Assembly (NCBI GenBank): GCA_016931315.1
Contig: JAFGFB010000214.1
Location: 8,353-72,352 of the forward strand
Direction: 5' to 3'
From: Anaerolineae bacterium
Lineage (GTDB): Bacteria > Chloroflexota > Anaerolineae > B4-G1 > SLSP01
DNA length: 64,000 nucleotides
Shown: one piece after another, positions 18,419-56,489 of the stretch
How the letters are laid out: each line of letters starts with the position of its first letter
How positions within the stretch are numbered: the first letter of the stretch is position 1
Translations under genes and position numbers: made by a program
Notes under the pieces: generated by a model
The model's input: the letters and a program-made list of their open reading frames with translations, nothing else
Databases searched by the model: none
Told to the model about the DNA's origin: nothing

Positions 18419-19168
18419 ATGGGCACAATAGGGCTACAATGGAATCTGCTTCCGGGCGCGGTACCCACAAGCACGAGGACTTGTCGGGATAACACGATGG
18501 GGACTACAGACACAGTCGAATTGCTGTCATTGCTGCATCCGCTGCCACTCTTCCGCGGCTTGAGTGCGCAGGAGATGCGAATTTTGCTGGCTGAGGCACG
18601 CCATCGCATCTTCCAGGTTGAGCAGCTTATCTTCGCACAAGACGAAGCCGGGGAAACCTGCCACATCATTATACAAGGACGCGTGCGCATTTTTGTCATC
18701 GGCGAAGATGGTCGAGAACTCTCCATGCGAATTCTAGGTCCTGGCGAAATCATTGGCGAGATGGCGCTTTTCGAGAACCTGCCACGCTCCGCAAGCGTGG
18801 TCTCCCTGGATGAAACGCATACCCTCGAACTTGACCAGGAAGCGTTGATGCGTTGCCTGCGCCGCTGCCCCGCGTTAGCCCTGAGCCTGTTGCAGGCTTT
18901 GAGCGCCCGCCTGCGCCACACAACCGAGGAGGCTGAAGGGTTAGCATCACAGCCTGTACCAGAGCGCCTGCTAAGGCGCCTGCAACAGCTGGCAAATAGC
19001 TCCGGCGTTCGCGTCCATGATGGACTTCGCATCGCTTTGCCGATGACCCAGCAAGAGCTCGCTACGCTAATCGGCACAAGCCGCGAGAGCGTCAATCGCG
19101 CCCTCGTGCGCCTGAAACAACAAGGTGCTATTCGCGTAGAAGGCGGGTGGATTATTCTTCTCGATTGA
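18419..19168 (+). CDS. Crp/Fnr-family transcriptional regulator (cNMP-binding + HTH)
   Basis: cNMP-binding pattern LFRGLS...GEIIGEMALFE..PRSASV, and HTH TQQELATLIGTSRESVNRAL. AGGAGGG RBS before the ATG at 18419. The 3' end overlaps the convergent S8 gene by 17 nt. Confidence 0.9.
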   Translation: MGTIGLQWNLLPGAVPTSTRTCRDNTMGTTDTVELLSLLHPLPLFRGLSAQEMRILLAEARHRIFQVEQLIFAQDEAGETCHIIIQGRVRIFVIGEDGRELSMRILGPGEIIGEMALFENLPRSASVVSLDETHTLELDQEALMRCLRRCPALALSLLQALSARLRHTTEEAEGLASQPVPERLLRRLQQLANSSGVRVHDGLRIALPMTQQELATLIGTSRESVNRALVRLKQQGAIRVEGGWIILLD

Positions 19169-21578
19169 TCACAGGTTCGCCACACCGGGAGCAGAAACGA
19201 CTGTTAGGCCGTAGTTCGGCTCCACAACGACGGCAGTAATGCACCGGTGCTTTGAAATCCAGAGGCGAACCACAAGCCGCACAAAAACGCGCGCCCGGTC
19301 GCGCCCGCGCCCCGCACACCGGGCAGACTGGGGTCGCAACCGGCTTCACCGCAGATGGGGGTTGTGGGCCTTCAGGCGGCTTAGGCACCGAACCAACTCG
19401 CTCCGTCGCCGGCAACTCGAGCGATGCCGGAGGTAAGGGCTGCGGTGCGGGCCGAACAGGGGGCGTCCGGGGCGGCATAGCTGGGCTTGCGGGCCCCGGT
19501 CGTGCAGCCCCTGGGCTTGCAGGCGGCGGATAGGACGGACGCAACGGTTGATAGGGCATGGCACGCTGGGCGGGGGTCCGCCCACTGCGTACCACAATGA
19601 CCACGGCAGCCAACAAGAAACCCGCTCCGGTACACCCCAAACCACCTATGAACAAACCCCAGAGTACCGTCCCGGCGTTGGAAGAACCTTCTTCCAACGG
19701 GCTTTCTTCAGGTATCTCTAGCGTGACAAATGCCACAGCTGTAGCAGTGGCGGTGGGCGGGAGAGGCGTTGTAGCAACAGGATCGGATACCGCTTCTGCA
19801 GTAGGGGTGGGTGGCAATACCAGGCCCGGTACGGCTGCAGGCAATTGTAGGCGACCATGTCCAAAACCTGTATCTGGACCTGTTGGGCCAAAATCCAACG
19901 CATTGACCAGCAAGTAATCTTTCACCTGTTCGCGAGTAAAACCCGGGTTTGCCTCCCAAACCAGCGCTGCTGCTCCCGCAACATGTGGGGTGGAAGCCGA
20001 AGTCCCATCAAACCCAGACTCCCCATAGGTCGCGCCAGAAACCCCCGCAGGTGCGGACATATCGGGCTTCAGCCGTCCATCCGTCGTAGGTCCCTGAGAA
20101 CTATAACTTGCCAGGCGATCGTTCCACCAGTTTGTAGCCCCCACAGTGAGCGCGTTCGCAGCATCGCCGGGCGAGCTGACACTATATGCGGATGAGGACT
20201 GCCCCACTTCTGCATTTGACCCATGAACAAAGATATCCAAAGTCACGGGCTGAGTGACATTGAATGCCTGCACAGCGGCGTAGACGGTGTCACCATCTGT
20301 GCGCACCCACGCCACCTCAGCCGGTCTCTGCCCCAGCGTGCCGTCCTGCGGTTCTTCCGAAGTTGCCAGCACAGTCCCCTGATCATCCACAATCACCAAT
20401 TCCAAATCTTGCACGGGTCGCTGCCAGTCATCCTCCCATACCAGATAGACTTCGACTTCATCGAGGCTATAAACAGGTAAAACCTCATCACCAACGGAGA
20501 ATTCGTGATAACCATCCCCATCTTCATCGGCGAAAATTCCACGATGATGTGTGAGAGCCTCATTGCCAGCAGAGTTTACCCAGAGAATGCCCTCGGCAGC
20601 GGTCTCGTCCACCAGATGCGTCCCCCACCCGGTTCCATCTCTGGGACTAACCACAGCGCCAACCGAGTGGGAAATGATATTGACCTGTTGCGTACGCAAC
20701 CATTCCACCGCTTCGCCGAGCGCAGCGTCCGAGCCATCATACCAGGCGAAAAAAAGAGTCGCCTCTGGGGCGACCTCATGAATGATTTCAGCGCAGGCGG
20801 CGCCATGGACTTCTGCGGCATCATACCAACCAAAGGTCTGCAACGTCACATTCGCAGGCAATTCGGTGCCGAGCAGCGCTTCGTAGCCCGCGAACCCCAA
20901 ATCCAGCACGCCGATGCGCAGGCCAGCCCCCGTAAAACCCGCAGCGTGCCACGCATCTGCACCTACCAGACTCACACCCTCACCGAGAATGTCACCTTGA
21001 GGATTCAGACTCTCCGGCTTGCGAGTCTCAGGCAAACGCACAGCGATGACATGCTCTAATTGCGTGAGTTGTTGAAAAACCGAGGCAGTATCCTCGCCGG
21101 CTTCCTGTGAGAGAAACTGTTCCTCAATGAGCGCCAATGGAACAGAGACATTGACCCGGTCACGGTAGGCACTGACAACATCAATGCCAGCCGCGCGCAA
21201 TTCCTCAGTCAGAGCGGTATTGTCCTCGGTGTCCAACACCAGGGTTACCCGCAGATTAAGCCCATCGGGTGTGAACAACCCACGCTCCTGCGCAAGCGCC
21301 GCCGCCGCCTCGCGACCTCCCGTCTGATAGGCAACCAAAAATTCCTTGTAGACCGCATCCAGTTGCGCATCATTCAGCAGCGGTGCAATCTGAGGATACT
21401 TTTCTGCCAGTTCTGTCAATGATGGCAACGGGGTCAGGTCAGTCAAATCAGGGACTTCTGACAAGGATATCTGAGGCAACAGAACATTCGGCCTAAGAAA
21501 GAAAAACAAGGCTATAGCCGTACCCAGAAGGATAACGCCACCCCCTAGCAGCAATACGAGCATTGATTTCTTTTTCAT
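19152..21578 (-). CDS. bitopic S8 (subtilisin-like) serine protease with a cytoplasmic Pro-rich tail and two C-terminal zinc ribbons
   Basis: Catalytic triad contexts GVLDLGF (Asp), HGAACAEI (His) and GTSASTPHVAGAAAL (Ser). N-terminal signal anchor and a second TM (LFIGGLGCTGAGFLLAAVVIVV). Ribbons CPVCGARARPGARFCAACG and CRRCGAELRPNSRFCSRCG. ATG at 21578. Confidence 0.9.
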   Translation of the reverse strand: MKKKSMLVLLLGGGVILLGTAIALFFFLRPNVLLPQISLSEVPDLTDLTPLPSLTELAEKYPQIAPLLNDAQLDAVYKEFLVAYQTGGREAAAALAQERGLFTPDGLNLRVTLVLDTEDNTALTEELRAAGIDVVSAYRDRVNVSVPLALIEEQFLSQEAGEDTASVFQQLTQLEHVIAVRLPETRKPESLNPQGDILGEGVSLVGADAWHAAGFTGAGLRIGVLDLGFAGYEALLGTELPANVTLQTFGWYDAAEVHGAACAEIIHEVAPEATLFFAWYDGSDAALGEAVEWLRTQQVNIISHSVGAVVSPRDGTGWGTHLVDETAAEGILWVNSAGNEALTHHRGIFADEDGDGYHEFSVGDEVLPVYSLDEVEVYLVWEDDWQRPVQDLELVIVDDQGTVLATSEEPQDGTLGQRPAEVAWVRTDGDTVYAAVQAFNVTQPVTLDIFVHGSNAEVGQSSSAYSVSSPGDAANALTVGATNWWNDRLASYSSQGPTTDGRLKPDMSAPAGVSGATYGESGFDGTSASTPHVAGAAALVWEANPGFTREQVKDYLLVNALDFGPTGPDTGFGHGRLQLPAAVPGLVLPPTPTAEAVSDPVATTPLPPTATATAVAFVTLEIPEESPLEEGSSNAGTVLWGLFIGGLGCTGAGFLLAAVVIVVRSGRTPAQRAMPYQPLRPSYPPPASPGAARPGPASPAMPPRTPPVRPAPQPLPPASLELPATERVGSVPKPPEGPQPPSAVKPVATPVCPVCGARARPGARFCAACGSPLDFKAPVHYCRRCGAELRPNSRFCSRCGEPVINREE

Positions 21579-21596
21579 GAACCTGATCACCTGCCA

Positions 21597-22628
21597 TCAA
21601 AAAGCTATACCAATAACGATTTCCGATGATGTGCGCCGGTCAAGGTAGGGTGAACTCTCTTGTACTTCGAAAGTAACACCCGCCCACACACGAGCGATAC
21701 CCACACGCCTGCCTTCAAGTCGAAACACCACCGTCTGTTCAGCGCCAGGCTCTAGCAACCCCGCTTGTTCAATGACCAGTGGTCCCACAGCTTCTGAAGC
21801 AACCAGCAGATCATCCCAAGACCCCTCTAGCGAATAGCGCATTCGCCCCAGGGCCACTTCACCAGTATTGACCAACGTCACCGTAAACAACACCGGTTCA
21901 CCAATGCGCACCGCCTGTGCTGAAGCGGTCAACACCACCCTGGCATCCGAAAGGCCAGAAGGTGTGATAGGAACAGTTGCCGTTAAGGTAGGTGTTGGCA
22001 GGGATAATGTCTGCGTGAGCGTAGCTATGGGTAAGGGCGCATCCAGTGTGGATGTGGGCAATAATACGGGAGGCAAAGCAGGTGGAGTTATCGTAGGGTT
22101 GGGCAAAGCGGTTTGTAGTGGAGCATCAGGAGTGTCCATTGCCGCCGGTGTGATTGTGGCTTGTTCAGCCCCCCCCACAAAGGGCAAGCGACCCTGGCGT
22201 AACCACGTTGCCATCGTCACTAACGCAAGAACGACACACCCTAAGAATATCAGCCCCCCCAATACAATCCACAGCGTTTGCGGTGTGCGAGTCGCTGGCG
22301 CAGGCACCGGCATCAAGCCATAATCCGGCACGACTGCAGGCTCTGAGCGCAACGCCGCATTTCCTGCCGCTTCAACTGAAGCGCGCTCGGCTGGAGACGA
22401 TGGTGGCGAGGCGACTTTGGGCGTTGAAGCATCAAGGGCAGCCCCACACCGGGGACAAAAGCGCCCCCCCGCTTTCACAGTTGCGCCACAAGCGGGGCAG
22501 ACTACCGAAGGCGGCGTCCCATCCGGTGCTGGGGGGGCACTCGCTGGAGTCACCGCAAGCGGATAACCACACTTGCGACAGAAGCGCACCTCTGGGCGAT
22601 TTTCAGTGCCGCAATTTGAACACCGCAT
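21597..22628 (-). CDS. double zinc-ribbon / TM / CARDB-DUF11-like Ig-fold protein
   Basis: MRCSNCGTENRPEVRFCRKCG and CPACGATVKAGGRFCPRCG, one TM, then an extracytoplasmic beta-rich domain (GEPVLFTVTLVNTGEVAL). AGGAGGG RBS. Confidence 0.75.
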   Translation of the reverse strand: MRCSNCGTENRPEVRFCRKCGYPLAVTPASAPPAPDGTPPSVVCPACGATVKAGGRFCPRCGAALDASTPKVASPPSSPAERASVEAAGNAALRSEPAVVPDYGLMPVPAPATRTPQTLWIVLGGLIFLGCVVLALVTMATWLRQGRLPFVGGAEQATITPAAMDTPDAPLQTALPNPTITPPALPPVLLPTSTLDAPLPIATLTQTLSLPTPTLTATVPITPSGLSDARVVLTASAQAVRIGEPVLFTVTLVNTGEVALGRMRYSLEGSWDDLLVASEAVGPLVIEQAGLLEPGAEQTVVFRLEGRRVGIARVWAGVTFEVQESSPYLDRRTSSEIVIGIAF

Positions 22629-22651: not shown

Positions 22652-23179
22652 CTACTCACGTTGTGCCAGATAGAGTCGCAACGATGTCTCATCGCTGGCA
22701 ACCGCCACCACTTCAAGCCCTTTCGAACCGACGCGTCCCACTAACTCTGTGTTCACAATATCATTCATTTCGTCCATAACACTACCTGGAACCAGGCGCA
22801 GCAGCGAGAGCCGCCCCATCTTCACATGCAACAATTGCACAGCCATACCGCCAGCCCCATCAGCGCGAAAAGCCACAGCGCCACGCGCCACGGGCTTGAA
22901 AGGGCCGGCTGCCAGCTGTACACCAAAGGTCGCTGCACCACCAGGCTGCATGTCCACATTCCCGGCAGTCAACGCATTGCTGGATTCCAGCATTACGCGA
23001 TTGATATACGTCTCCTCAATGATAACTTCCATATCATAGGCTGGCAACGGAGGTAAAGGCCCCACCGTAGATTCTTTGTCCAAAACTCTAACCAGGAGCC
23101 AGCCCCCCACAACACCGGCTACCAGGCCCAGAAACACGCCCCCCAGCAACAACAACCCTGATTTCAGCTGTGTGTTCAT
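22652..23179 (-). CDS. membrane-anchored DUF2993/LmeA-like protein (low-confidence family call)
   Basis: N-terminal TM followed by a beta-rich domain paralogous to the C-terminus of the upstream gene (shared E.Y.N....D.QP...T.DE..L.L pattern). Confidence 0.45.
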   Translation of the reverse strand: MNTQLKSGLLLLGGVFLGLVAGVVGGWLLVRVLDKESTVGPLPPLPAYDMEVIIEETYINRVMLESSNALTAGNVDMQPGGAATFGVQLAAGPFKPVARGAVAFRADGAGGMAVQLLHVKMGRLSLLRLVPGSVMDEMNDIVNTELVGRVGSKGLEVVAVASDETSLRLYLAQRE

Positions 23180-23193: not shown

Positions 23194-24045
23194 TTATAAT
23201 CGCGCTTTGAGGATGATGTGCTCTTCATCCGTTGTAATATCCAACAACCGCGAACCCTCACCAAGTTCGTTTTCCAGTTGTTCGCGCAAGGCACGGGTGA
23301 AATTTTTACCTAACGTGACCTCATCCATATTCAGGAATTGCATAAGGTCGCTCCCGCCGGCGACAATGTCTTCGATACTCACCACGATTTCACCATCCAC
23401 AACAGAGAGCCGCGCCATGATTTTGAGCTCCAGGGAAACAAAAACCAGGTCGAAGTTCGCTGTAGTCATAAGAAGATTGTTGGGTTGAACATCCAGAGAT
23501 GCGTCCTTCAAACCCTTCTCGGGCAGAATTGCAACAAGGTTCTCGTTCAGATAAGCTTCGCGTACCAGGATGGTAATATCGTGTCCATTCGGATCGCCAA
23601 GGATCGCAGCAGGAGGTGTATCGTTCAGCCCCGGTAGCAACCCCAATGCCAACACACCACAACAGCTCAGACAAAACATCAATCCCAGAGCCACCAACGC
23701 TAACCACCATCCCACAATACTGCGCTCTGCACGCTTAGCATTTGCAGGCTTTGATAGCCCAGAGCCAACCAGTTTCACAGGAGGGCGTATTGCATCGCGA
23801 TCTGCAGAAACGGGAACGGGCGCTGCTGGTTGAACAGGTTGGTGCTCCTGCGGTGACGCTGACCCCGGGCGTGGTGTACACTCATGACCACAACGCGCAC
23901 AGAAGCGTGCACCCGGCTTTAGCGCCGCGCCACATACAGGACAAGTCAATATTACAGGAGGCGATGCACCCTGCAATACATGTCCACAACGCTTGCAGAA
24001 ACGCGCATCCTCACGGTTTTCGAAACCGCACTGCGGGCATTGCAT
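23194..24045 (-). CDS. double zinc-ribbon / TM / DUF2993-like protein
   Basis: MQCPQCGFENREDARFCKRCG and CPVCGAALKPGARFCARCG, one TM (WWLALVALGLMFCLSCCGVLALGLL), and a C-terminal domain like gene 22652-23179. ATG at 24045 with AAGGGGG RBS. Confidence 0.75.
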   Translation of the reverse strand: MQCPQCGFENREDARFCKRCGHVLQGASPPVILTCPVCGAALKPGARFCARCGHECTPRPGSASPQEHQPVQPAAPVPVSADRDAIRPPVKLVGSGLSKPANAKRAERSIVGWWLALVALGLMFCLSCCGVLALGLLPGLNDTPPAAILGDPNGHDITILVREAYLNENLVAILPEKGLKDASLDVQPNNLLMTTANFDLVFVSLELKIMARLSVVDGEIVVSIEDIVAGGSDLMQFLNMDEVTLGKNFTRALREQLENELGEGSRLLDITTDEEHIILKARL

Positions 24046-24071
24046 CGGACGCCCCCTTTCTATAGAAAACC

Positions 24072-25820
24072 TCAATCCGAAATCGTCCAGTCCAGGTCTG
24101 ACTGGAAATCCACCTCGAACTCCGAAACCAGATCATTACCCTCACAATCTTGCGTTAGCAAATCGTACGTTCCCGGAGTGAAAAAGAATACCCGCTGCCC
24201 CCCTCCGGAATCAATAGACTCACTCTCGCCAAGCCAATCATCACCCCAAGAATCCGCCGTAGTCGAGGAAATGTAAACATAGCAGATTTCATCGCTGGAA
24301 TCATTGATCAGATGCAGCGAAACTAATCCCATGCCGCCCACATCCAACGTAGTATCCTGGCTAATCTTCCAGGCAGTAGCAAGCACCACATCATCGCAAT
24401 CGCTAAGCTTGACATCATAGGTACCCGCCGGAACATCAAATACCCGCGAATCACCTGAATAGATCAGATCTTCCTCGCCAAGCCAGTCTTCACCCCAGCT
24501 GTCACTATCAGAAGCGGAGATTTGAACATAGCAGACGTCATAATCGCTGTAATTAGCAACGGTGAGCTGGAAAGCCCCGGCAGAGGGAACAGTGGTGAGT
24601 TCCGGTTCCGTGGGAGCCACAGTCGGAGAAGGCGCGCGCGACGTAGGCGTCTGCAATTCCGGCAGTGGAGTCGGATTCACACGAGTAACGGCAGTAGCGG
24701 TAGGCATCTCAGTCGGGCTAGCGAAAAAGCCACTTCCGCGAATCAGGAACAGCGCACCGCAAACGACACTTGCGCCAAGAATGAGCACGCCAAGTCCTCC
24801 AATAATCCAAACCCAGGGGGAGAGTCGTTTTTTGGGTGGGGCATCCCGGCCCCCAGGCATAGCAGCAGCCGAATTATTGCCCACTGACAATGGAGAATGG
24901 CCCGACACCCCTGGCGCCGGAGGGGGAGTGCTGACCGGTTGATAAACCGGGCTAACTGCAGCCGGAATAGTAGCCGGAAAAGGTTGCGCCACGCGCTGAC
25001 TCACCAGAGCATCCGTCATCGCAGCCGCCGTGGGGAAACGGCGATCCAATTGAAGTTCCATCGCCCGCGAAATAATCGCTTCCAGAGAGGGCGAAATCTG
25101 CCCATTAATAGCGCGTGGCGTCTTAAAAGCGCCTGGCATTGCCATGCGCTGCGTGGCTGTTGCCGGCGCCTGCCCGGTAAGCGCATGATAGAGTGTCGCC
25201 CCAAGGCTATAGAGGTCACTGCGGGCATCCGTATGGCTACTATGGGTATCATACTGCTCCGGCGGCGCATATTCCGGCGTACCCATACCGCGCATAATCG
25301 TCTGCGTACGTGGATCATTCGGATTCCACAGCTTCACCAAACCAAAATCCACCAACACCGCTTTACCGGTCGCATGAATGATCACATTCTGAGGTTTGAT
25401 ATCGCGATGAATGATGCCTTCCGCATGACAGTATGCCAGAGCATCCAGCAACTGCCTGCCCCACGCAACAACTTGCGCTTCGGATTGTGCCCCTTCGCGC
25501 AGCAGTTTATCCGCCAGGCTCTCGCCCAGCACAAAATCCATCACCAGATAGGCATTGCTACCCTCTTCAAAGAAATCGGTCACCCGTACCAGATTGGGAT
25601 GATTGAGTCGCGCAAGAATCGTCGCTTCCTGACGGAATTGGTCGCGTAAACCGGCGAGCGTAGCCTGATCCAAACCGGGTTGGGGGCGCATTTCCTTAAG
25701 CGCAACCGCGACATTCAAACGCGTATCCCAGGCGCGATAAACCGCTCCCATACCGCCCTCACCCAACAGGGCCACAATGCGATAACGTTCCTGCAATAAT
25801 TGTCCAGGCTCAAGTGCCAT
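24072..25820 (-). CDS. Ser/Thr protein kinase K1 (family A) with TM and two tandem Cys/Trp-motif ectodomains
   Basis: GEGGMGAVY, VALKEM, HRDIKPQN, DFGLVK and GTPEYAPPE. TM WVWIIGGLGVLILGASVVCGALFLI. GGAGG RBS. Confidence 0.95.
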   Translation of the reverse strand: MALEPGQLLQERYRIVALLGEGGMGAVYRAWDTRLNVAVALKEMRPQPGLDQATLAGLRDQFRQEATILARLNHPNLVRVTDFFEEGSNAYLVMDFVLGESLADKLLREGAQSEAQVVAWGRQLLDALAYCHAEGIIHRDIKPQNVIIHATGKAVLVDFGLVKLWNPNDPRTQTIMRGMGTPEYAPPEQYDTHSSHTDARSDLYSLGATLYHALTGQAPATATQRMAMPGAFKTPRAINGQISPSLEAIISRAMELQLDRRFPTAAAMTDALVSQRVAQPFPATIPAAVSPVYQPVSTPPPAPGVSGHSPLSVGNNSAAAMPGGRDAPPKKRLSPWVWIIGGLGVLILGASVVCGALFLIRGSGFFASPTEMPTATAVTRVNPTPLPELQTPTSRAPSPTVAPTEPELTTVPSAGAFQLTVANYSDYDVCYVQISASDSDSWGEDWLGEEDLIYSGDSRVFDVPAGTYDVKLSDCDDVVLATAWKISQDTTLDVGGMGLVSLHLINDSSDEICYVYISSTTADSWGDDWLGESESIDSGGGQRVFFFTPGTYDLLTQDCEGNDLVSEFEVDFQSDLDWTISD

Positions 25821-33076: not shown

Positions 33077-33089
33077 GATCGATATTCCT

Positions 33090-47940: not shown

Positions 47941-48092
47941 AAAAGGCTCCTTCGACTGGCAGGAAAAGGCAATCCAAGATGCGGAACAAGTTATGTCACA
48001 CAGATTGTGCCACAAATCACTATAGATGCACTGGTCGAGCAGCTAACCTGCTTCGATTCCGTGATGTTTATTGCGCCTGAACCGGCGACGCT

Positions 48093-49013: not shown

Positions 49014-49064
49014 CGCCCCCTCCTTCAACTTAAAACAACGAGATCCTTACCCGGCCAGTTTGGG

Positions 49065-50324: not shown

Positions 50325-51438
50325 TCCAACCTCCCCAGTAACGTTGCAACAACGTCAGAAATGATGGAATTGCTGCCGCAGGAGCAGTTTCAGATGCAGG
50401 CGAATACATCCCCCAGCCAATGACGAGCATGGCAGCGAAAATCACAAACGCGATGACGAGCAGCGCAATCAATAGTGCCCGTCTGCGAGATGGCTCCAGT
50501 TGGGCAAGGTCCTCTCGCAGGGCGGCAACGTAACCCGGCATCGAGGCAGGTCGCAGTTTTACAGGCGCAGTCGCTGCTGCGCCACCCACACGCGCCAGAA
50601 CTACTGAAATGTTATCATAACCGCCCTGAACATTAGCCATCTCGATCAAGCGCTCTACTGCGCGGCGTGGAACACTGCCCGACACCGTCCGAACGATCTC
50701 AGCCTCGGGCACCATATCATAGAGGCCATCAGAACATAAGACGACCATATCGCCCGGCGCCAGCGACACTGGGCGGAACACATCGACCATCACTGAAACA
50801 GCAGCTCCAAGGGCGCGTGTCAGCACGCTGGCATCAGGGTCATTCGCCACCTCTGCTTGTGCAATCGCGCCCCGCTCGGCTTTTTGCTGCGCCAGGGTAT
50901 GGTCACGACTTTGTTGATACAACACACCATCGCGGAGGAGATACGCGCGGCTATCACCCACATTCGCAAGGTACAATTGCCCTTCATGTACGATGGCAGC
51001 CACCATGGTGCTCCCTGCCTGCGTGGCTCCGATCTCTTTTAGATAGCGATGCAATGCAACATTGGTTTGCTCAATCGCCTCGCGTAAGTCACCAGTGAGG
51101 TCTTGTCCGGGTAGCGCATAATAACGCTCAGCAACAAGACGGATGGCCCATTGACTTGCTGCGCTGCCAACCTGTTCGCCACCAATGCCATCGGCAACTA
51201 ACAGCAACTGCCCCTTGCGTGCCAGTAGATCGGCAGAGGGGCTGTAAAAACGCTTGCCGTCCATCGGATCCGGGTAAATGGCATCCTCGTTGACGGCACG
51301 TTCGCGTCCCACATCAGTTGCGCCACATACGTCCAGGCCCAACAGCTGAGGATTTGAACGGCGTGAGTCGAGCACGCTGCCCGGTTGCCCACTAGATGGC
51401 GCCGCCAATCCGGCGGCTTCAGCAGATACCATCGTCAT
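50317..51438 (-). CDS. PP2C Ser/Thr phosphatase with a C-terminal TM anchor (PstP-like)
   Basis: LVADGIGGEQVGSAAS, GDSRAYLL, LCSDGLYDMV and GGYDNISVVL. TM ALLIALLVIAFVIFAAMLVIGWG. Confidence 0.92.
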   Translation of the reverse strand: MTMVSAEAAGLAAPSSGQPGSVLDSRRSNPQLLGLDVCGATDVGRERAVNEDAIYPDPMDGKRFYSPSADLLARKGQLLLVADGIGGEQVGSAASQWAIRLVAERYYALPGQDLTGDLREAIEQTNVALHRYLKEIGATQAGSTMVAAIVHEGQLYLANVGDSRAYLLRDGVLYQQSRDHTLAQQKAERGAIAQAEVANDPDASVLTRALGAAVSVMVDVFRPVSLAPGDMVVLCSDGLYDMVPEAEIVRTVSGSVPRRAVERLIEMANVQGGYDNISVVLARVGGAAATAPVKLRPASMPGYVAALREDLAQLEPSRRRALLIALLVIAFVIFAAMLVIGWGMYSPASETAPAAAIPSFLTLLQRYWGGWNV

Positions 51439-51547: not shown

Positions 51548-53641
51548 CTACAGGCCCGGCTTCCAGGGATTCGGTGGTCTCCCAGACGCAGGTAAATCGT
51601 CCGCCCGAACGGTTGGGCCATAACCAGGCGGCGATCCACCCGGAGGGCCTTCCATTTGCGGAATGTCAGCAGACACGTCATCCGCAGACACCGTCGGCCC
51701 ATAGGGGGATGAGCCTGCAGCCGCTTGAGTTGGAGGAACCGATCCGGCGGAGTAAGCGTTGCCTGAGGGCGCCTGCCCTTCGATACTGACCCGCCGCGTC
51801 TCGCCTCCCAGGCGTTTGAACTGAAGTTGTGTATTCCCCACTTTGATGATGGCATCCGGTTGCAAAGGCACCGGTTGTGAGGGACGCAACTGTAACCCGT
51901 TAAGGAAAGTTCCATTCGTGCTGCCCTCGTCCACAATGAAGACCTGGTTTTGCTCTTGCCGAATGGAGAAATGCGGATTGGAGATAAATTGATCAAAGAG
52001 TGGGAAATCACAGTTCTGGGCATCACGACCGACCTTGACCTGTGGCGATGCTAAGCGGTACTCCTGCCCCACAGATGAACCGTGAACGACCACCAGCTTA
52101 CCGTAAGCAGGTCCCGCTGCACTCAGGCGCTGAGTCATCTTGCTGATAGCACCCGCCGCAGGTGCAACGACTTTGCGCGCAATCTCACCACGTGTCTTGA
52201 TCAGGAGAATCAGCAATATTAACAGCCCCAACAACAAAAATCCCAGGACCACGATAATCCACCAGTTTTGCTTGACCGTCTCTTTGGTCTCCTCGACCAC
52301 GGTGACTTCTTCCGCTTCCCAGGTAACCCGCACATTGACCGGTTGACTTGCCATCTCGACATCGAGATAAGGATCTGTGGCCCGGGCCAGGAAGGTGATG
52401 TCACGGGATTGAATCTCGCGCGTGGGAGTCACGAGATTGCTCACCTGCCACTCAAATGGATAATCTGGCGCGCTGCTGGAGGCGCCGATGAGCGCACCAT
52501 TCGCATAATAGGACACCGTATCCGGATTGCGGGTCTCGGCATCAGGAAATTCCATTGCCACACTAAGAGTCACGCCACGTTCAAGAAAGCCGTCTATCGT
52601 TTTGGAGAAGGGCACGGTAATAGACGTCTCAGGCGGTGTGTTTAGGCTGAGGCGTGGTGTCCGCAGCTTCGAAGCAACCGTTGTCTCTGTAAAGGCATCG
52701 CCTATGACTGTCCCTTGCACCTGCACCCGCACTTTGTAATCACCCTGAGGCTTGATAACTGGGAAACGCAACCTGTAAGCGCCACGTAGTGTTACTAAGT
52801 CATCAAAGAGGCTCAGTGTAGCTTCGCTGTTGCTCGGCTCGTGCGCAGCATAGCGACCATGAGTCTGCGTCGCCATTGCCTGAAGGTTATCCTCGTCGGT
52901 CGCCCCACCCCCCATACGCACGGCGTACAACAAAATTCCAGATTGCAGGCATTTGTTGATGATTACCGTTTCATAAGCTTCACTGCTAAACTGGCGATCA
53001 ATGCCGTCGGAAAACACGACAATGACAGCCCTACGGCTATTGAGCTGCGCCTGTACCTGCGCGTTGGGATTCTGAGTCAACCACTCGATAGCACGATCAA
53101 TGCCATCATACATTGGCGTGACCTCGGGAACCACTTCTGCACGCAGGGCATCAAATTCGTTACGTATCGAGTTAGGATCCCGATCCGTGAAAGGAATCAA
53201 CGGTGTCAAGCCACCCGCATCACGACCACGGATACCCACCAACGCGACCATATCGGCATTGGGCGATCCATCCACAACCAACCGATCAAGCAATGCCCCC
53301 GACAGGTCCATTGCCTGACCGATGCGTGGGTCGTTCTTGCGCGCGATGCCGCCGCGATCGACGACCAACACAACGGCAACGCCGCCAGTCTCAGAGGTGA
53401 CGCCGGTCAGCGGAATAGCTTCACCCGAAAGCTGCAACGCGAAATTATCAGCCGTGAGATCGGGCAGGCTACGACCCACATTCGGGTCTAAAACCGAAAC
53501 CAGTATCTCTGCATTAGGTCCCGGTGATGGTTCCCCCAGAACACGGAGCACCGGCCCCTGACCCTGAGCGCCAATTTCAAGAGCCAGCAATAGTAGCATA
53601 AACAGATAGAAGACTACCTTTATGGGACGTAGCCTCTTCAT
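51548..53641 (-). CDS. signal peptide / extracytoplasmic vWA-like (degenerate MIDAS) + Ig-like region / TM / cytoplasmic FHA / PG-rich tail
   Basis: Signal peptide MKRLRPIKVVFYLFMLLLLALEIGAQG. vWA-like VVLVVDRGG...VIVVFSDGID. TM WWIIVVLGFLLLGLLILLILLI. FHA VKVGRDAQ...NPHFSI...EGSTNGTFLNG. GAGGAGGAAG RBS. Confidence 0.85.
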   Translation of the reverse strand: MKRLRPIKVVFYLFMLLLLALEIGAQGQGPVLRVLGEPSPGPNAEILVSVLDPNVGRSLPDLTADNFALQLSGEAIPLTGVTSETGGVAVVLVVDRGGIARKNDPRIGQAMDLSGALLDRLVVDGSPNADMVALVGIRGRDAGGLTPLIPFTDRDPNSIRNEFDALRAEVVPEVTPMYDGIDRAIEWLTQNPNAQVQAQLNSRRAVIVVFSDGIDRQFSSEAYETVIINKCLQSGILLYAVRMGGGATDEDNLQAMATQTHGRYAAHEPSNSEATLSLFDDLVTLRGAYRLRFPVIKPQGDYKVRVQVQGTVIGDAFTETTVASKLRTPRLSLNTPPETSITVPFSKTIDGFLERGVTLSVAMEFPDAETRNPDTVSYYANGALIGASSSAPDYPFEWQVSNLVTPTREIQSRDITFLARATDPYLDVEMASQPVNVRVTWEAEEVTVVEETKETVKQNWWIIVVLGFLLLGLLILLILLIKTRGEIARKVVAPAAGAISKMTQRLSAAGPAYGKLVVVHGSSVGQEYRLASPQVKVGRDAQNCDFPLFDQFISNPHFSIRQEQNQVFIVDEGSTNGTFLNGLQLRPSQPVPLQPDAIIKVGNTQLQFKRLGGETRRVSIEGQAPSGNAYSAGSVPPTQAAAGSSPYGPTVSADDVSADIPQMEGPPGGSPPGYGPTVRADDLPASGRPPNPWKPGL

Positions 53642-53735: not shown

Positions 53736-55544
53736 TCAAGCGCCCATCTGCACAATGAGCACGGTGATATTGTCCTCTCCGCCAGCCTCATTCGCTGCCT
53801 TGACTAATAAGTCACAAGCCTCTTGAGGAGAGGCTGCTGCGTGCCAGATCTGCCAGATATCTTTGTCGGATATCATGCCACTCAAACCATCAGAACACAA
53901 AAGCAAGGCTGCACCAGAATCCAGCAGCTGCTCAAAGAGATCCACCTCGACCTTGGAGCGATCTCCGATGACGCGATAAATCACATTGCGTTGTGGATGA
54001 TGAGCCGCTTCATCGCGAGTGATCTGCCCCGTAGCGACCAATCGCTCCACTAACGAATGGTCAACCGAGACCTGGCGAATACCATCAGCATCCAGAAAAT
54101 AACAGCGGCTATCCCCAACATTGGCAATCAACGCCCGTCCGCCGCGCACCAGGGCTGCCACCAAGGTGTTCCCCATATCATTGCCAGCAGCGGTTCGTTG
54201 CTCGTAGACTGCCTGATTGGCAGCCTGCACCGCCCCGGTCAGCCAATTGCGCCATTCGGGAAACGGTTTTGCCGTCGCCAGGAGCGGTAGCAGGTCCACA
54301 CTGGCACGCTGGGCTAAAACACGCGCCGTCAGCTCGCTGGCAACGTCACCCGCCTCGTGCCCGCCCATACCATCTGCAACCACGAATAATCCAACCGGTT
54401 CACTAACCGACTTAAATACGGAAGCAAATTCCAGGGTCAGCAGACTATCCTCGTTTAACGACCGCACACGTCCCACATCGGAACGCCGCCCCACCACCAG
54501 CGTCGCACTGGTGGGATGGCGCAATTCATCCAGGCAAGCTTCCAGTTCCGCAGTAAATGTCTCCGCCATCAGAACCTGCGGCGTATTAATTCCCTGATAC
54601 AACAATGTTTTCAGGCGTGACGAGAACGCCATGTCCGTAGTGAGTTGCTTCTGCCCAGTCATCAAGTACAACAATACTGTCGCCAATCCTTGAACATCTC
54701 GGGAGAGAATCTCGTTAAGCGCCTCACCCGTCGAGCGCTGCGCCGGTGGAATGATTTGCGCGCGGTTCAGATTGGTCCACAATGGGAGCTTGCCATCAAA
54801 AACGATGTGGTTAGGACTGATAGTCTGTAACGTGATCTGATGCCGATGCAGGTAGGTCAGCGCCTGACCCAGAGCAATGCCCCATGTCAAAACCGTGTTG
54901 ACCTCCTGTGGTATTTGCAAGACAGCTGCTGAAGGCAATGGGAACTCAGGCGCCACGCGGTATTGACGCGGCGATCCATAAGGCGCCTCATTGAAAATCG
55001 CGATGGAGAGCCGAAGACCGGGGTGCTGCAAACGCAGCGCTAACAGCTGCGCTTCTTGTGCGAAGGCCTGGGGGTCAGCACTCTCATGAAGACGATAGCG
55101 CAAATTAAGTGGGGCGGTGTTAGTGCGCTCTGCACCGCAGCTCTCGCAGTAACGCTCTTCAGCGGACTCAGAAGCAACCCCGCAATGCTCACAAACCCAA
55201 ACTGGCACACGATCCACTACCAGGTATTCGTTGATCTGCGCACTGGTGGATTGTACGGCCAAAACCGCATAGCGGTCCTGAAACAACAGCGCCCCTTCAG
55301 GCAATGGCGCAAAAGCCGCACTGAGGTTGGGCAAGGGAACCGTTACGGATTCATTCGTTGCCGGTTCATGGGTCACGGAGGGTGATGAATCATCTTGCGG
55401 AACTGTATCTGGCACCATTGGCGCTGTCTGTGGTCCGGAATTCATAGCGGCGGGAGCAGATTCTTCAGACCCAAGGTCGTTGCCACATTGAAGGCAAAAC
55501 CGCGCACCAGCACGATTCTCAAAACCGCATTGTGGACACTTCAT
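53736..55544 (-). CDS. zinc-ribbon / pseudokinase-like / PP2C phosphatase fusion (copy b)
   Basis: MKCPQCGFENRAGARFCLQCG. A kinase-like region with an inserted CEHCG...CESCG ribbon; YLHRHQITLQTISPNHIVF replaces HRD and there is no DFG. PP2C motifs VVADGMGGHEAGDVAS, GDSRCYFL, LCSDGLSGMI and GGEDNITVLIV. Confidence 0.85.
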   Translation of the reverse strand: MKCPQCGFENRAGARFCLQCGNDLGSEESAPAAMNSGPQTAPMVPDTVPQDDSSPSVTHEPATNESVTVPLPNLSAAFAPLPEGALLFQDRYAVLAVQSTSAQINEYLVVDRVPVWVCEHCGVASESAEERYCESCGAERTNTAPLNLRYRLHESADPQAFAQEAQLLALRLQHPGLRLSIAIFNEAPYGSPRQYRVAPEFPLPSAAVLQIPQEVNTVLTWGIALGQALTYLHRHQITLQTISPNHIVFDGKLPLWTNLNRAQIIPPAQRSTGEALNEILSRDVQGLATVLLYLMTGQKQLTTDMAFSSRLKTLLYQGINTPQVLMAETFTAELEACLDELRHPTSATLVVGRRSDVGRVRSLNEDSLLTLEFASVFKSVSEPVGLFVVADGMGGHEAGDVASELTARVLAQRASVDLLPLLATAKPFPEWRNWLTGAVQAANQAVYEQRTAAGNDMGNTLVAALVRGGRALIANVGDSRCYFLDADGIRQVSVDHSLVERLVATGQITRDEAAHHPQRNVIYRVIGDRSKVEVDLFEQLLDSGAALLLCSDGLSGMISDKDIWQIWHAAASPQEACDLLVKAANEAGGEDNITVLIVQMGA

Positions 55545-55547
55545 GAC

Positions 55548-56408
55548 TCAGCCCCCCTTTCCCGCACGGAAGGTGAAGATGACAGCGCCGAGAGCCAACT
55601 TCCAACCATCATGCAACAGATTACGTCCGGTGCGCTGCGCATTGACATAGATACCATTCGCAGAATTCAAATCTGTTACAATCCAATCTTCCCCTTTTCG
55701 AGAAATACGCGCATGATGCTGAGACACAGTCTCCCAGTTGGGGAAAGTGGGACCAATGACCAAGCCGTTATCCGTCGCACGCCCAATAGTGACACCTTCA
55801 GGATTCAGCTCGTAGGTCCGCACCTGCCCCTCGGTATCTGTATAAGTCAGGCTGGCAGGGGCTGGCGCTGTTGGCGGGGCGGATGGTTTCAGTGGTGTAA
55901 TAGGACGGGTCCCCGTACGCTTGGGTCGGCGGCGCTTTCGTCTGAAAAACCACACAAGGAGCAAGCCTAAAAATAGCAACCCCAAGAATCCAACCATAAT
56001 CCCGGCAAAAAGCACAGGATGCTGTAAAAACCAATCCCCCAAGCCACCGGGCTCAGGCGTTGGAGATGCAATTGGAGGCTTGGGCTCCGAGGCATCTGTG
56101 GGCGCCGGCGCTTTGGTAGGCGTGACCTGAGATGTCGGTGTTGGCGTGGGTGTAACCGTCGAAGTTGCTGTTGGAGTCAGCGTAGAAGTAGCTGTCAAAA
56201 AGGACTCAGAAATTGGAGTGGTAACTGTCATTGTCGGCGTCAAAGTAATAGAGGGTGTGGTAGTTATCTGTGCCGATTGCGCAATGGGTAATGCAACTGG
56301 CGGCGCCAATGGTGCGGCCCAAGCCCCAAGTGGTAACATCAGAATTCCTGGCAATAACAGGGATAGGCCAACCGTGATAAGGTAAACCCCAATTTGTTTG
56401 CGTTTCAT
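55548..56408 (-). CDS. signal peptide / PT-rich ectodomain / TM / cytoplasmic FHA protein (FhaB/FipA-like topology)
   Basis: FHA VTIGRATDNGLVI...SQHHARI...DLNSANGIYVN. TM VLFAGIMVGFLGLLFLGLLLVWFF. ATG at 56408 (AAAGGTGAG RBS). The stop lies 3 nt before the next ATG. Confidence 0.88.
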   Translation of the reverse strand: MKRKQIGVYLITVGLSLLLPGILMLPLGAWAAPLAPPVALPIAQSAQITTTPSITLTPTMTVTTPISESFLTATSTLTPTATSTVTPTPTPTSQVTPTKAPAPTDASEPKPPIASPTPEPGGLGDWFLQHPVLFAGIMVGFLGLLFLGLLLVWFFRRKRRRPKRTGTRPITPLKPSAPPTAPAPASLTYTDTEGQVRTYELNPEGVTIGRATDNGLVIGPTFPNWETVSQHHARISRKGEDWIVTDLNSANGIYVNAQRTGRNLLHDGWKLALGAVIFTFRAGKGG

Positions 56409-56489
56409 AGCACTCACCTTTGAGGAAGAAGGAACTTTACATTCTAACTATACAGCAGTTAAGCCCTTTATGCAAGCGAAAGAAGTTTT

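Follow-up and report, generated by a model that had tools for sequence, protein, structure and literature searches.

It is reasonably likely that a chromosomal array recurring in separate Anaerolineae lineages encodes a membrane-associated Ser/Thr phospho-signalling network with cell-envelope outputs. In the uncultured Anaerolineae MAG studied here, this array spans 37 kb (19152-56417) of the window, by which we mean the whole 64,000-nucleotide stretch of DNA analysed. It consists of 23 consecutive ORFs (g1 to g23), all on the minus strand, which cover ~98% of the interval. The initial annotation had described this co-oriented block, and the ORF layout confirms it, down to the three junctions quoted (TAATG at 37734, ATGTCTGA at 50317-50324 and a 3-nt gap at 55545-55547). 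Its statement that the gaps are mostly under 30 nt holds, counting from the longest ORFs, for 13 of 22 junctions, but the other nine measure 36-177 nt. The true gaps at g17 and g9 are probably larger, the likely starts being downstream; for g17, a start-codon scan points to the ATG at codon 26 as the probable start.

What do these genes encode? Pfam searches recover the same signalling content that had been read from the letters: seven Hanks kinases (g5, g6, g7, g8, g10, g13 and g17), three PP2C phosphatases, of which g12 and g22 are fusions to a pseudokinase and g20 is membrane-bound, five FHA domains in four proteins (two in g15, one each in g18, g21 and g23), all intact, and two vWA proteins (g19 and g21). 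Cytoplasmic zinc ribbons are found in eight array proteins. The kinase motifs had been called intact throughout; this is true of six kinases, which carry the G-loop, VAxK, HRD, DFG and PE motifs, but g10 has FRD for HRD. The array had also not been recognised as a described system. A reading of it as something without known counterparts is not supported, as its parts map onto known modules, namely ArnA/ArnB, Rv1747/PknF, a Deinococcus operon and TerY-P-like triads (PMC11090510).

Four of the kinases form a paralog group. The receptor kinase g17 (46108..48015; Pkinase E 4e-47) has the typical motifs, a cytoplasmic kinase domain, one transmembrane helix and an ectodomain of unknown fold, and its orthologs come after g18 in six related loci (L002, L003, L006, L013, L031 and L043). 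The receptor kinase g13 (37734..39461; E 1e-49) is the kinase closest to the exporter g15, and its ortholog in L165 (56% identity over 99% of the length) keeps this position. The other two are g6 (25998..28007), a receptor kinase with an FlaA-like segment in its ectodomain (E 8e-7), and the receptor kinase g5 (24072..25820; E 6e-49). Kinase domains within the group share 59-69% identity, the g5-g6 pair standing at 69%; these are recent paralogs, and the density of the array therefore stems partly from local duplication. The receptor kinase g10 (33090..35075) carries an extracytoplasmic PD40 beta-propeller; its ortholog in L165 shares 43% identity with it along 100% of the length, and a kinase-PD40 protein is also found at this position in L078 and L080. 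Downstream, g8 (29560..31656) is a soluble kinase (no transmembrane helix in the scan) followed by a double zinc ribbon and TPR repeats, and g7 (28017..29534) is a kinase with a four-helix membrane domain. L082 and L161 contain kinase-DZR orthologs of g8 (58% identity) directly followed by orthologs of g7 (58% identity over 99% of the length).

The phosphatases include two unusual fusions. The soluble g22 (53736..55544) combines a zinc ribbon, a kinase-like region and PP2C. Comparison of the g22-family profile with the kinase profile gave an hhalign probability of 98.2% (E 4e-14) over residues 74-321, a region that has no G-loop, HRD or DFG motif and contains a CxxC..CxxC ribbon insert. Its paralog g12 (35602..37734) has the same arrangement, including the ribbon insert, and aligns with the g22 family over residues 182-709 (hhalign probability 100%, E 2e-72); it belongs to a separate ortholog family (47-60% identity), some members of which have a precomputed Pkinase match. 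Both g12 and g22 have a kinase-like fold, and the PP2C domains of both score above the NCBIfam Stp1/IreP cut-off. The third phosphatase, g20 (50317..51438; PP2C E 4.7e-17), retains the metal-binding Asp motifs and has a C-terminal transmembrane anchor (322-340), a topology like that of PstP. Around g21, the g22 ortholog lies immediately upstream in 38 of 40 loci and the g20 ortholog downstream in 24 of 32.

How would the phosphorylation marks be read? The gene at the head of the array, g23 (55548..56417), encodes a membrane-anchored FHA protein (E 2.8e-14) with an N-terminal signal or transmembrane segment, ~110 residues outside, a transmembrane helix (140-158) and a cytoplasmic FHA domain in which the pThr-binding residues (GR, SxxH and NG) are intact. 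It resembles FhaB/FipA, with a match below the NCBIfam cut-off, and in 23 of 31 loci an ortholog of it precedes g22-g21 on the upstream side. The receptor-like g21 (51548..53641), defined by Pfam, family alignment and an AF2 model (pLDDT 77), has a signal peptide, a beta-sandwich, a vWA domain with a degenerate MIDAS (DRGG), two Ig-like domains, a transmembrane helix, a cytoplasmic FHA domain and a disordered tail; Foldseek relates it to adhesin-type vWA domains (ITIH1, SpaC and TRAP) and to FHA domains. About 50 orthologs are present in Anaerolineae/Thermoflexales MAGs. The soluble proteins g18 and g19 are a zinc ribbon-FHA and vWA pair of the ArnA/ArnB type. In Sulfolobus, the ribbon's target is the unphosphorylated form, and that of the FHA domain is the phosphorylated helical bundle (PMC6509490, PMC12852372). 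The AF2 model of g19 (49065..50324; pLDDT 87, pTM 0.84) predicts an ArnB fold, with a vWA domain plus a beta-sandwich and, at the C-terminus, a bundle of four helices. Foldseek matches (4fx5, E 3e-29; ArnB 8s05_A, E 2e-25; 5a8j, E 2e-20) and a sequence match to 8s05_A (E 1.7e-10) agree with this assignment. The MIDAS of g19 is canonical (DHSGS), and in its family (64-67% identity, >100 clusters) five threonines of the helical bundle are invariant (T342, T348, T363, T371 and T410). Its partner g18 (48093..49028) has three zinc ribbons and a C-terminal FHA domain with intact binding residues, and matches ArnA (5a8i and 8s05_C) across ribbon and FHA (E 2e-5 to 3e-5). Orthologs of g18 are near those of g21 in 17 of 18 loci, and in only 9 of 18 does g19 come after g21. 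As a group, g17-g20 resemble the vWA-STPK-FHA-PP2C operon of Deinococcus, which provides an experimental precedent (bioRxiv 10.64898/2026.01.23.701218).

The remaining members were said to be envelope or export proteins. The FHA-linked ABC transporter is indeed present: g15 (40196..42982) has an N-terminal CxxC..CxxC ribbon, two FHA domains, an ABC ATPase (ABC_tran) and an ABC-2 permease (ABC2_membrane). Together with g13 it resembles Rv1747/PknF, the experimental precedent for FHA-regulated ABC export (PMC3138270), but in g15 a short linker joins the FHA domains, in contrast to the phospho-acceptor linker found in Rv1747. Orthologs (39-65% identity) were found in L011, L017, L079, L082, L161, L164 and L165. 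The neighbouring lipoprotein g14 (39532..40170; LVGC lipobox), whose orthologs adjoin g15 in L011, L017, L165 and L078, is pro-domain-like as proposed: over residues 87-208 it shares 36% identity (E 1e-25) with residues 56-184 of g1, ahead of the catalytic domain. The latter protein (19152..21590) is the expected transmembrane S8 protease, in which a transmembrane helix, the pro-region and an extracytoplasmic subtilase domain with an intact D/H/S triad precede a second helix and a cytoplasmic double zinc ribbon; its best NCBIfam match is mycosin, below the cut-off. Orthologs (51-54% identity) sit directly upstream of g23/g22 in L011, L017, L018, L020 and L043, as do partial g1-like ORFs in L014 and L021. 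Orthologs of g2 (21597..22628), a protein with a cytoplasmic double zinc ribbon, a transmembrane helix (119-137) and a Thr/Pro-rich ectodomain, lie upstream of g1 in L011, L018, L020 and L079. The BNR propeller protein is g16 (43094..46045), N-terminally anchored and extracytoplasmic (Sortilin-Vps10 E 1.3e-22, plus BNR); it is a lineage-specific addition, with orthologs seen in no loci but those of two near relatives, L002 and L006. Two of the earlier assignments hold in part. For the LysM peptidase g9 (31670..33232), membrane anchoring and LysM (E 2e-10) are clear, but for the possible metallopeptidase domain the basis is an HELTH motif together with a Peptidase_MA_2 match below threshold (E 0.017). 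An M14-LysM peptidase occupies this position in L078, L080, L161 and L165. Of the DUF2993-like proteins, only g4 (23194..24075) qualifies, through a sub-threshold LmeA match (E 0.014) in the ectodomain that follows its cytoplasmic double zinc ribbon and transmembrane helix. Its orthologs in L017, L082 and L161 share 40-42% identity with it along 96% of the length and are always followed by orthologs (41-44% identity) of g3 (22652..23179), a small protein anchored by an N-terminal helix (15-33) and without a Pfam match. The small single-pass membrane protein g11 (35142..35621) has a weakly LysM-like C-terminus (E 0.002, below the cut-off), and its orthologs directly follow g12 in L081, L162, L164 and L165.

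Is the array a chance pile-up? Comparison with other loci shows that it is not: tens of other genomes contain homologous blocks of genes. Five co-oriented blocks, g23-g22-g21-(kinase)-g20-g19-g18-g17, g15-g14-g13, g12-g11-g10-g9-g8-g7, g4-g3 and g2-g1, are found again in Anaerolineae/Thermoflexales MAGs at 40-60% identity, often adjacent and in differing order. Orthologs scattered across related genomes had been named as the observation that would speak against a cluster; orthologous blocks are instead syntenic across Anaerolineae. L165 keeps g15-g14-g13-g12-g11-g10-(M14-LysM)-g8 at ~50% identity, and L082 and L161 keep g12-g10-g8-g7-g4-g3-g15. Other loci bring together g4-g3-g15-g14-kinase-g1-g22-g21 (L017) or g15-g14-g2-g1-g23-g22-g21 (L011). 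A single contig holds g15, g12, g2 and g1 (L079), and it may hold a g21 homolog too, by the proxy that one is recorded on a contig of equal length. The array is a set of about five blocks of variable order and does not form a single fixed unit of 23 genes. In most genomes the g23-g17 block occurs by itself; g1 adjoins it in only ~7 of ~23 loci with enough flank. Two MAGs hold two paralogous copies each of the g23-g21 block, so that modules can duplicate and work independently.

In the leader upstream of g23, a terminator scan found a perfect minus-strand hairpin (56549..56595; 20-bp stem, then a T run); it lies downstream of a promoter-like site (56671-56643) and ahead of the start of g23. The leader has a fold z-score of -4.5 and no Rfam family match, and the hairpin may act as an attenuator or as an insulator. 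The window has related palindromes at 5122-5156 and 17194-17209.

Could the array be a vWA/FHA-regulated conflict system, the alternative raised at the outset? This reading is not supported. PADLOC returned only generic kinase, ABC and PP2C matches, with no defence-system assignment and no match to any vWA or FHA protein, and the flanks hold housekeeping genes for DNA repair and metabolism and lack mobile elements. GC content is uniform. The most likely role is control of the cell envelope, not defence against phage. The envelope-directed reading gains support because nearly all array proteins are membrane-anchored with ectodomains, because orthologous arrays in relatives include peptidoglycan enzymes (M14, LysM, YkuD and GH3) as well as SH3_3, and because, as had been noted, rodA, pbpA and ftsW are absent among the array genes (Pfam).

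How might the parts work together? The writers would be the seven kinases, predicted to comprise five single-pass receptors with differing ectodomains, one four-helix membrane kinase and one soluble ribbon-TPR kinase, which would sense extracytoplasmic cues and phosphorylate threonines of array-encoded partners. The five canonical FHA domains, in g21, g23, the ArnA-like g18 and the exporter g15, would bind these marks on the membrane's inner side, and the three PP2Cs, predicted to be active, would take them off. In g12 and g22 the fused pseudokinase probably docks the phosphatase onto kinases, and zinc ribbons may likewise serve as docking modules. By analogy with Sulfolobus, g19 and g18 probably form a phosphorylation-switched complex. 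Candidate outputs are an FHA-gated exporter of Rv1747 type (g15) with the LmeA-like partner g4-g3, the membrane protease g1 with g14 as a pro-region lipoprotein acting in trans, and peptidoglycan binding or trimming, by g9 and g11 here and by M14, YkuD and GH3 enzymes in relatives. The physiological output would act on the cell envelope, and the array is best seen as class-wide, modular and envelope-directed, built from known kinds of module whose wiring we infer.

The 23 consecutive ORFs g1–g23 (jointly, the array), all on the minus strand at 19152-56417, probably encode an envelope-directed phospho-signalling network. They are transcribed in the direction g23 (55548-56417) to g1 (19152-21590), and about 98% of the span lies within ORFs. 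How tightly are these genes packed? The initial annotation gave three junctions correctly to the base: TAATG at 37734, ATGTCTGA at 50317-50324 and a spacing of 3 nt at 55545-55547. Its description of the spacing as mostly below 30 nt applies to 13 of the 22 junctions, which are 30 nt or shorter or overlap, but not to the other nine, which measure 36-177 nt (36 nt between g18 and g19). At NCBI, g21 is identical to MBN1921972.1 and g19 to MBN1921970.1 (both "MAG: ... [Anaerolineae bacterium]"). The longest g9 ORF runs 143 nt into the end of g10 (33090-33232), so the true start of g9 is probably downstream. Just past g1, a 268-aa ORF at 18379-19185 (minus strand) has no Pfam match, is mirrored by a 251-aa ORF on the plus strand and is perhaps not a gene. 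Scans for promoters and terminators across 19-57 kb gave counts equal to the shuffled expectation, thus internal transcription units are neither defined nor excluded; the leader hairpin of g23 alone was exceptional. This hairpin (56549-56595, minus strand) combines a perfectly paired stem of 20 bp with a T run and is preceded by a promoter-like site and followed by the start of g23; folding of the leader gives a z-score of -4.5. Possible roles are those of an attenuator, of an insulator or of a palindrome bound by a protein. GC-rich palindromic hairpins with A/T-run flanks and the core TTTTTGGCGGCGrGrC have five matches, compared with 0.24 expected by chance, every one in a divergent intergenic region (the g23 leader, but also 5122-5156 and 17194-17209). 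An Rfam scan of the whole window at gathering threshold returned zero matches.

A Pfam search of all 23 proteins bears out the domain tally of the initial annotation. Kinase domains are found in seven proteins (g5, g6, g7, g8, g10, g13 and g17); six of them keep the G-loop, VAxK, HRD, DFG and PE motifs, while g10, which had been counted among the intact ones, reads FRD for HRD. PP2C phosphatase domains are present in g12, g20 and g22, with the metal-binding aspartates in place in g20. The five FHA (phosphothreonine reader) domains are distributed over four proteins, two in g15 and one each in g18, g21 and g23, and all five keep the binding signature GR, SxxH, N-x-T-N-G/F. The vWA proteins are g19 and g21. 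Among the remaining members, g1 is a subtilase of family S8 that keeps its D/H/S triad and ends in a double zinc ribbon, g15 has the order FHA-FHA-ABC_tran-ABC2_membrane with six predicted transmembrane (TM) segments, g9 carries LysM, g10 a PD40 propeller, and g16 is a Sortilin/BNR propeller. A feature barely mentioned in the initial annotation is the recurrence of cytoplasmic CxxC-x10-CxxC zinc ribbons, of the same Pfam families, in eight proteins (g1, g2, g4, g8, g12, g15, g18 and g22).

Where are these proteins located? By hydropathy scan nearly all of them are predicted to be membrane-anchored, the soluble ones being only g8, g12, g18, g19 and g22. Five kinases have a cytoplasmic kinase domain, one TM helix and an ectodomain, and g7 has four helices. 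The protease g1 runs TM, ectodomain, TM and cytoplasmic ribbon; g2 and g4 have a ribbon, a TM helix and an ectodomain; g20 is a PP2C with a C-terminal TM helix; and g14 is a lipoprotein. The predicted order in g21 is signal peptide, ectodomain, TM helix and FHA, and g23 is similar but smaller. The AF2 model of g21 (pLDDT 77) consists of a beta-sandwich, a vWA domain, two Ig-like domains, the TM helix and the FHA domain, and its Foldseek matches are adhesin-type vWA ectodomains and FHA domains. The MIDAS of g21 is degenerate (DRGG), and invariantly so across its family.

Some of the accessory proteins can be assigned less firmly. The lipoprotein g14 is paralogous to the pro-region of g1 (E 1e-25), and this likeness suggests a trans-acting inhibitor or chaperone of the g1 protease. 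The best NCBIfam match of g1 itself is mycosin-like, far below cut-off; since EccC and WXG genes are also absent from the window, a type VII secretion (T7SS) locus was rejected. DUF2993-like proteins had been reported in the plural, which is not supported: the g4 ectodomain gives a sub-threshold LmeA/DUF2993 match, and g2 and g4 have in common only the ribbon and the TM helix. For g9, there is a sub-threshold match to an MA-clan peptidase together with a HELTH motif; its identification as an M14 peptidase was rejected because it shares LysM alone with the M14-LysM protein at the same position in a related array (L161; handles of this kind denote comparative loci in other Anaerolineae, Thermoflexales or Chloroflexota MAGs).

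Two of the phosphatases, g12 and g22, are paralogs. Both pass the NCBIfam Stp1/IreP equivalog cut-off of 230 bits (237.1 bits for g12 and 245.8 for g22), with an N-terminal ribbon and pseudokinase extension that falls outside this family. A profile of 23 g22 orthologs aligns with a profile of the array kinases over g22 residues 74-321 (hhalign probability 98.2%, E 4e-14), and the kinase-like region lacks the G-loop, HRD and DFG motifs and has a CxxC..CxxC ribbon inserted in the N-lobe. When g12 was compared with the kinase profile as a single sequence, hhalign aligned only low-complexity Pro-rich sequence. Its kinase-like nature is therefore established via the g22 family, to which it aligns over residues 182-709 (E 2e-72); in addition, some members of its own ortholog family (47-60% identical) have a precomputed Pkinase match. 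On this profile evidence g12 and g22 have a kinase-like fold, and the count of two pseudokinase-PP2C fusions plus one membrane PP2C was correct.

Does any part of the array resemble a characterised system? One likeness is that of g18 and g19 to ArnA and ArnB of Sulfolobus acidocaldarius. Like ArnA, g18 combines zinc ribbon and FHA (the GR, SxxH and NxT residues are present), and its sequence matches ArnA over both parts. Like ArnB, g19 has a vWA domain with an intact MIDAS, a beta-sandwich and a C-terminal helical bundle, and the sequences match too. The AF2 model of g19 (pLDDT 87, pTM 0.84) has these three elements in the same order, the bundle being of four helices, and adopts an ArnB fold: Foldseek placed ArnB of the ArnAB complex (8s05_A, E 2e-25, TM 0.65/0.71) and an ArnB paralog (5a8j, E 2e-20) behind the actual top match, an uncharacterised actinobacterial protein (4fx5, E 3e-29), with Sec23/24 further behind. 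The MIDAS residues D51-H-S53-G-S55 are invariant in the family alignment A5, and of all the array proteins g19 is conserved best (64-67% identity across more than 100 clusters), with invariant threonines in the bundle. In Sulfolobus, the ArnA ribbon binds unphosphorylated ArnB, and once ArnC has phosphorylated the bundle the FHA domain binds it (PMC6509490, PMC12852372); the phosphorylated region of ArnB is equivalent to the threonine-bearing bundle of g19. The archaeal pair works with the kinases ArnC/ArnD and a phosphatase, and here g18 and g19 adjoin, with the Hanks kinase g17 and the phosphatase g20 alongside. The differences are that the array is bacterial, that g18 has three ribbons instead of one, that the phosphatase is PP2C and not PP2A, that there is no archaellum, and that the pair sits in a far larger array with seven more ribbon-bearing proteins. 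The same four activities (g19, g17, g18 and g20) are matched by the Deinococcus radiodurans genes DRA0331-DRA0334, which encode a vWA protein, a transmembrane STPK, an FHA protein and a KI-FHA-PP2C, and for which antagonism between FHA and phosphatase on the kinases has been found experimentally (bioRxiv 10.64898/2026.01.23.701218). However, the Deinococcus phosphatase docks via KI-FHA, in place of which g20 has a membrane anchor and g12 and g22 have a pseudokinase, and the Deinococcus operon comprises four genes and is tied to the DNA-damage response and not to envelope proteins.

A second likeness concerns g15. As in Rv1747 of Mycobacterium tuberculosis, one polypeptide joins a pair of FHA domains at the N-terminus to an ABC ATPase and an ABC-2 permease. 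Rv1747 is positively regulated by PknF phosphorylation, which its FHA domains read (PMC3138270), and the counterpart of PknF, the Hanks kinase g13, is one gene away from g15. The order g15-g14-g13 is kept in L165, and g15 is also accompanied by a kinase in L079 and L164. Unlike Rv1747, g15 has an extra N-terminal zinc ribbon, and the lipoprotein gene g14 intervenes before the kinase. In Rv1747 a long disordered linker between the FHA domains carries the phospho-acceptor threonines, whereas the g15 linker has only ~35 residues, so acceptor sites, if any, must be elsewhere. A PDB sequence search with g15 returned generic ABC ATPases only and no Rv1747 chain, and the comparison therefore rests on architecture and literature.

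The initial annotation had set the array apart from the actinobacterial fhaA-fhaB-pstP-rodA-pbpA-pknA-pknB cluster. Could it nevertheless be the Chloroflexota counterpart of that division/elongation cluster, directly regulating septation or wall-synthesis proteins encoded elsewhere? Both loci have co-oriented FHA proteins, a membrane PP2C (g20 has the topology of PstP) and receptor kinases, which in actinobacteria control the envelope. In g21 and g23 the part made up of TM helix and FHA is similar to FhaB/FipA, but the scores of 68.6 and 60.3 bits against NF049868 (E 6e-19 and 2e-16) are below the cut-off of 125. The peptidoglycan enzymes of orthologous arrays could also be read in this way: M14 carboxypeptidases (free and kinase-fused), LysM, YkuD L,D-transpeptidase, GH3 hydrolase and SH3_3 (examples at L165:14422-18631, L078:11674-13551 and L163:4420-5721). 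Against it, rodA, pbpA and ftsW are absent by Pfam from all 23 proteins, as had been stated, and SEDS and class B PBP genes are absent from the flanks as well; Pfam found no PASTA domain in the kinases and no FhaA-type DUF3662 in the array. The actinobacterial cluster has no vWA, ribbon, ABC or S8 components, which the array has along with many more kinases. We regard this reading as highly improbable.

To what extent is the array conserved? A genome scan with the g21-family alignment recovered ~50 true orthologous loci in Anaerolineae, Thermoflexales and other Chloroflexota MAGs (27-92% identity), whose ORFs were compared with the window proteins by blastp; the counts that follow are of loci with enough flank. 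Orthologs of g22 lie immediately upstream of the g21 ortholog in 38 of 40 loci and those of g23 upstream in 23 of 31; downstream are g20 (24/32), g18 (17/18) and g19 (9/18). Between the g21 and g20 orthologs, 23 of 36 loci have an additional atypical kinase of ~420 aa, here called kinX, with NLD for HRD, one TM helix and a Thr/Pro-rich tail (L011:12058-13344 and L043:7321-8673, for example). It is missing from the window (g21-g20 gap 51439-51547) and from the close relatives of the window, and two MAGs hold both kinX-less and kinX-type copies of the block. A g1-like ORF is found just upstream of g23/g22 in seven loci, full-length (51-54% identity) in L011, L017, L018, L020 and L043 and partial in L014 and L021. 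Ahead of g1, four of them (L011, L017, L018, L020) carry subsets of g2, a g5/g13-like kinase, g14, g15, g3 and g4, thus the same genes are linked in a different order.

The middle of the array is conserved as well, as the contexts of g12 orthologs revealed. A metagenome scan with the g12 alignment was of limited use, as the back-translated patterns hit motifs common to PP2Cs in general: of 80 loci, L081 and L082 were informative and the other 78 had unrelated PP2Cs. In L165, from a different organism of the same sample (~54% identical), the order is g15-g14-g13-(NERD-FHA)-(ribbon-kinase)-g12-g11-g10-(kinase-M14)-(M14-LysM)-(YkuD)-g8; L082 and L161 keep g12-g10-(M14-LysM)-g8-g7-g4-g3-g15; and one 56-kb contig (L079) has a g18-like gene, g15, g14, an ArnB-like vWA gene, g12, several kinases, g2 and g1. 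The comparative loci indicate that the array consists of about five blocks (g23-g17, g15-g13, g12-g7, g4-g3 and g2-g1), while g16 is confined to near relatives. The expected conservation of gene order was thus found, in that the blocks are syntenic in other Anaerolineae, though permuted. A NERD-FHA protein adjoins the g12 ortholog in L078, L080, L162, L164 and L165 (e.g. L165:6940-8037 and L164:5408-6823), and a second ArnB-like vWA protein, 34-41% identical to g19, is also present in L078, L080 and L164; L079 has the vWA alone. The two constitute a second ArnA/ArnB-like pair, with NERD replacing the zinc ribbon, and both genes are absent from the window.

This block structure raises the question of whether the array is a unit at all. 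It might instead be a loose "kinome island", in which the ArnAB-like quartet and the Rv1747-like pair, as well as the sets around the pseudokinase-PP2Cs and the S8 protease, are independent Ser/Thr cassettes, each with a pathway of its own. Genes duplicated in place, a common strand or replication context and a loosely constrained gene order would then be the only reasons for their proximity. The kinases g5, g6, g13 and g17 are paralogs with 59-69% identity; g12 and g22 are paralogs of each other; block order varies; g23-g17 stands alone in most genomes; some g12 orthologs are found in small contexts followed by unrelated genes (L162, L163); and two MAGs have two paralogous g23-g21 blocks each. 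All of this fits separate cassettes. However, after rearrangement the blocks often adjoin again, in several lineages with 40-60% identity and always co-oriented, one type of ribbon is found on eight otherwise unrelated proteins, and tight or overlapping junctions span different cassettes (g5/g4, g12/g11, g13/g12 and g15/g14). We consider a set of independent cassettes possible, but rather unlikely.

What surrounds the array? On one side, a DNA-repair neighbourhood (5252-14972) includes RecJ, a histidine phosphatase and an AddAB/AdnAB-like set, in which a PD-(D/E)XK nuclease comes after two UvrD-like helicases; DinB (DNA polymerase IV) is encoded on the opposite strand. This flank also has AIM24 and a luciferase-like oxidoreductase. 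On the other side is a MoxR (AAA_3)-DUF58-transglutaminase/DUF4129 operon (58736-63595, minus strand), which adjoins g23 on its upstream side in three near relatives (L002, L004 and L006); in the window, a plus-strand PMT_2-type glycosyltransferase gene (56697-58586) separates the two. The flanking genes are housekeeping genes, and no integrase or transposase was found in the flanks. A prophage or mobile island was rejected, given the uniform GC content of array and flanks together with the lack of an integrase. Two relatives have extra genes: L079 has an EAD7-CHAT (caspase-like) protein between the g2 and g1 orthologs (L079:17817-19145), and L163 has WXG100, an RHS/YD toxin and a DDE transposase between two copies of the g12 ortholog (L163:12817-17225 and 18141-19259). 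These are sporadic links to conflict genes, seen in these two only.

Is the array then a conflict or anti-phage system, of the TerY-P kind or of Aravind's "ternary system" kind, with an effector (protease or transporter) that would be armed through phosphorylation when a phage infects? TerY-P by definition unites a TerY-like vWA protein and a PP2C with a kinase that has a ribbon or OB fold fused to its C-terminus (PMC11090510), and in the array vWA, PP2C and kinase genes occur together with zinc ribbons, g8 being a kinase with a C-terminal double ribbon. The theme of kinase(ZnR)-PP2C-vWA is known from conflict neighbourhoods (Kaur et al., PMC7159879), and the EAD7-CHAT and WXG100-RHS neighbours and the MoxR-DUF58-transglutaminase operon upstream could be taken in the same sense. 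But the kinase beside the vWA/PP2C pair, g17, is a receptor kinase with TM helix and ectodomain and no ribbon, and g8 is 15 kb away. PADLOC (E <= 0.001) matched no model of any system, TerY-P included, to the vWA proteins g19 and g21, and none to g18 or g23 either; the kinases, PP2Cs and the ABC protein gave generic matches only, those of the kinases being to generic STK models (PD-T4-6, mad6, MkoA) that are uninformative on defence. Effectors of the nuclease, Ter, HEPN, restriction or NTPase kind are absent from the array, as are Ter, restriction and CoCoNuT genes from the window. The housekeeping flanks without integrase or transposase also speak against defence, and core proteins with 45-67% identity across many Chloroflexota MAGs are more typical of vertically kept machinery than of patchy islands. 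Finally, the components are mostly extracytoplasmic or membrane proteins linked to peptidoglycan enzymes. A role in defence is very unlikely.

We thus favour an envelope-directed network, because PADLOC has no system match, the gene set departs from the TerY-P definition, the flanks are housekeeping and orthologous arrays contain peptidoglycan enzymes. How might it operate? The receptor kinases would place phosphothreonine marks on array partners, the FHA domains of g21, g23, g18 and g15 would read these marks at the membrane, and g20 together with the pseudokinase-targeted g12 and g22 would remove them. By analogy with Sulfolobus, g18/g19 may act as a kinase-dependent switch of the ArnAB type, going from a loose complex held by the ribbon to a tight one held by the FHA domain; the neighbouring kinase g17 and PP2C g20 and the invariant threonines of the g19 bundle support this indirectly. 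The effects of the network would be exerted by the g15 exporter together with g4-g3, by the g1 protease together with g14, and by proteins that bind or trim the wall. A bolder version, which we put forward as a doubtful speculation, would make the array a bacterial "phospho-signalosome" built around vWA hubs of the ArnB/Sec23-24 fold, with the shared ribbon as the tag by which its eight bearers (the protease g1, the exporter g15, the PP2Cs g12 and g22, the kinase g8, the single-pass membrane proteins g2 and g4 and the ArnA-like g18) would dock onto a hub that is not phosphorylated. Once the receptor kinases had phosphorylated threonines, the hub would turn to partners bound through FHA domains. 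In this way the sensing of peptidoglycan would be linked, along a multicellular filament, to the export of lipids, to proteolysis and to trimming of the wall. If true, the "core motif" of ArnAB and Sec23-24 would be extended from archaea and eukaryotes to a bacterial adaptor role resembling that of membrane cargo adaptors.

Full-text literature searches returned no paper that deals with both Anaerolineae and this kind of signalling. The nearest published work consists of the studies cited above on ArnAB, Rv1747/PknF and Deinococcus, the theme of Kaur et al. and the observation that ribbon-PP2C fusions are common in Chloroflexota (PMC12088040). Taken as a whole, the array appears to be undescribed, each element being of a known kind. 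It is a good lead and not a new category, as all its parts are known domains or modules with predicted functions. It supplies testable bacterial cases of an ArnA/ArnB-type switch, of pseudokinase-targeted PP2Cs and of an FHA-gated ABC exporter outside actinobacteria, and the one type of ribbon on eight proteins suggests a shared docking code. To our knowledge, experiments on an ArnA/ArnB-type switch have so far been confined to Sulfolobus. The filamentous Anaerolineae abound in digesters, sediments and wastewater; they are hard to culture and, as far as we know, have hardly been studied at the molecular level. For these organisms, a recurring array of kinases, phosphatases, FHA and vWA proteins would be an obvious starting point for work on how the filament senses and remodels its envelope.
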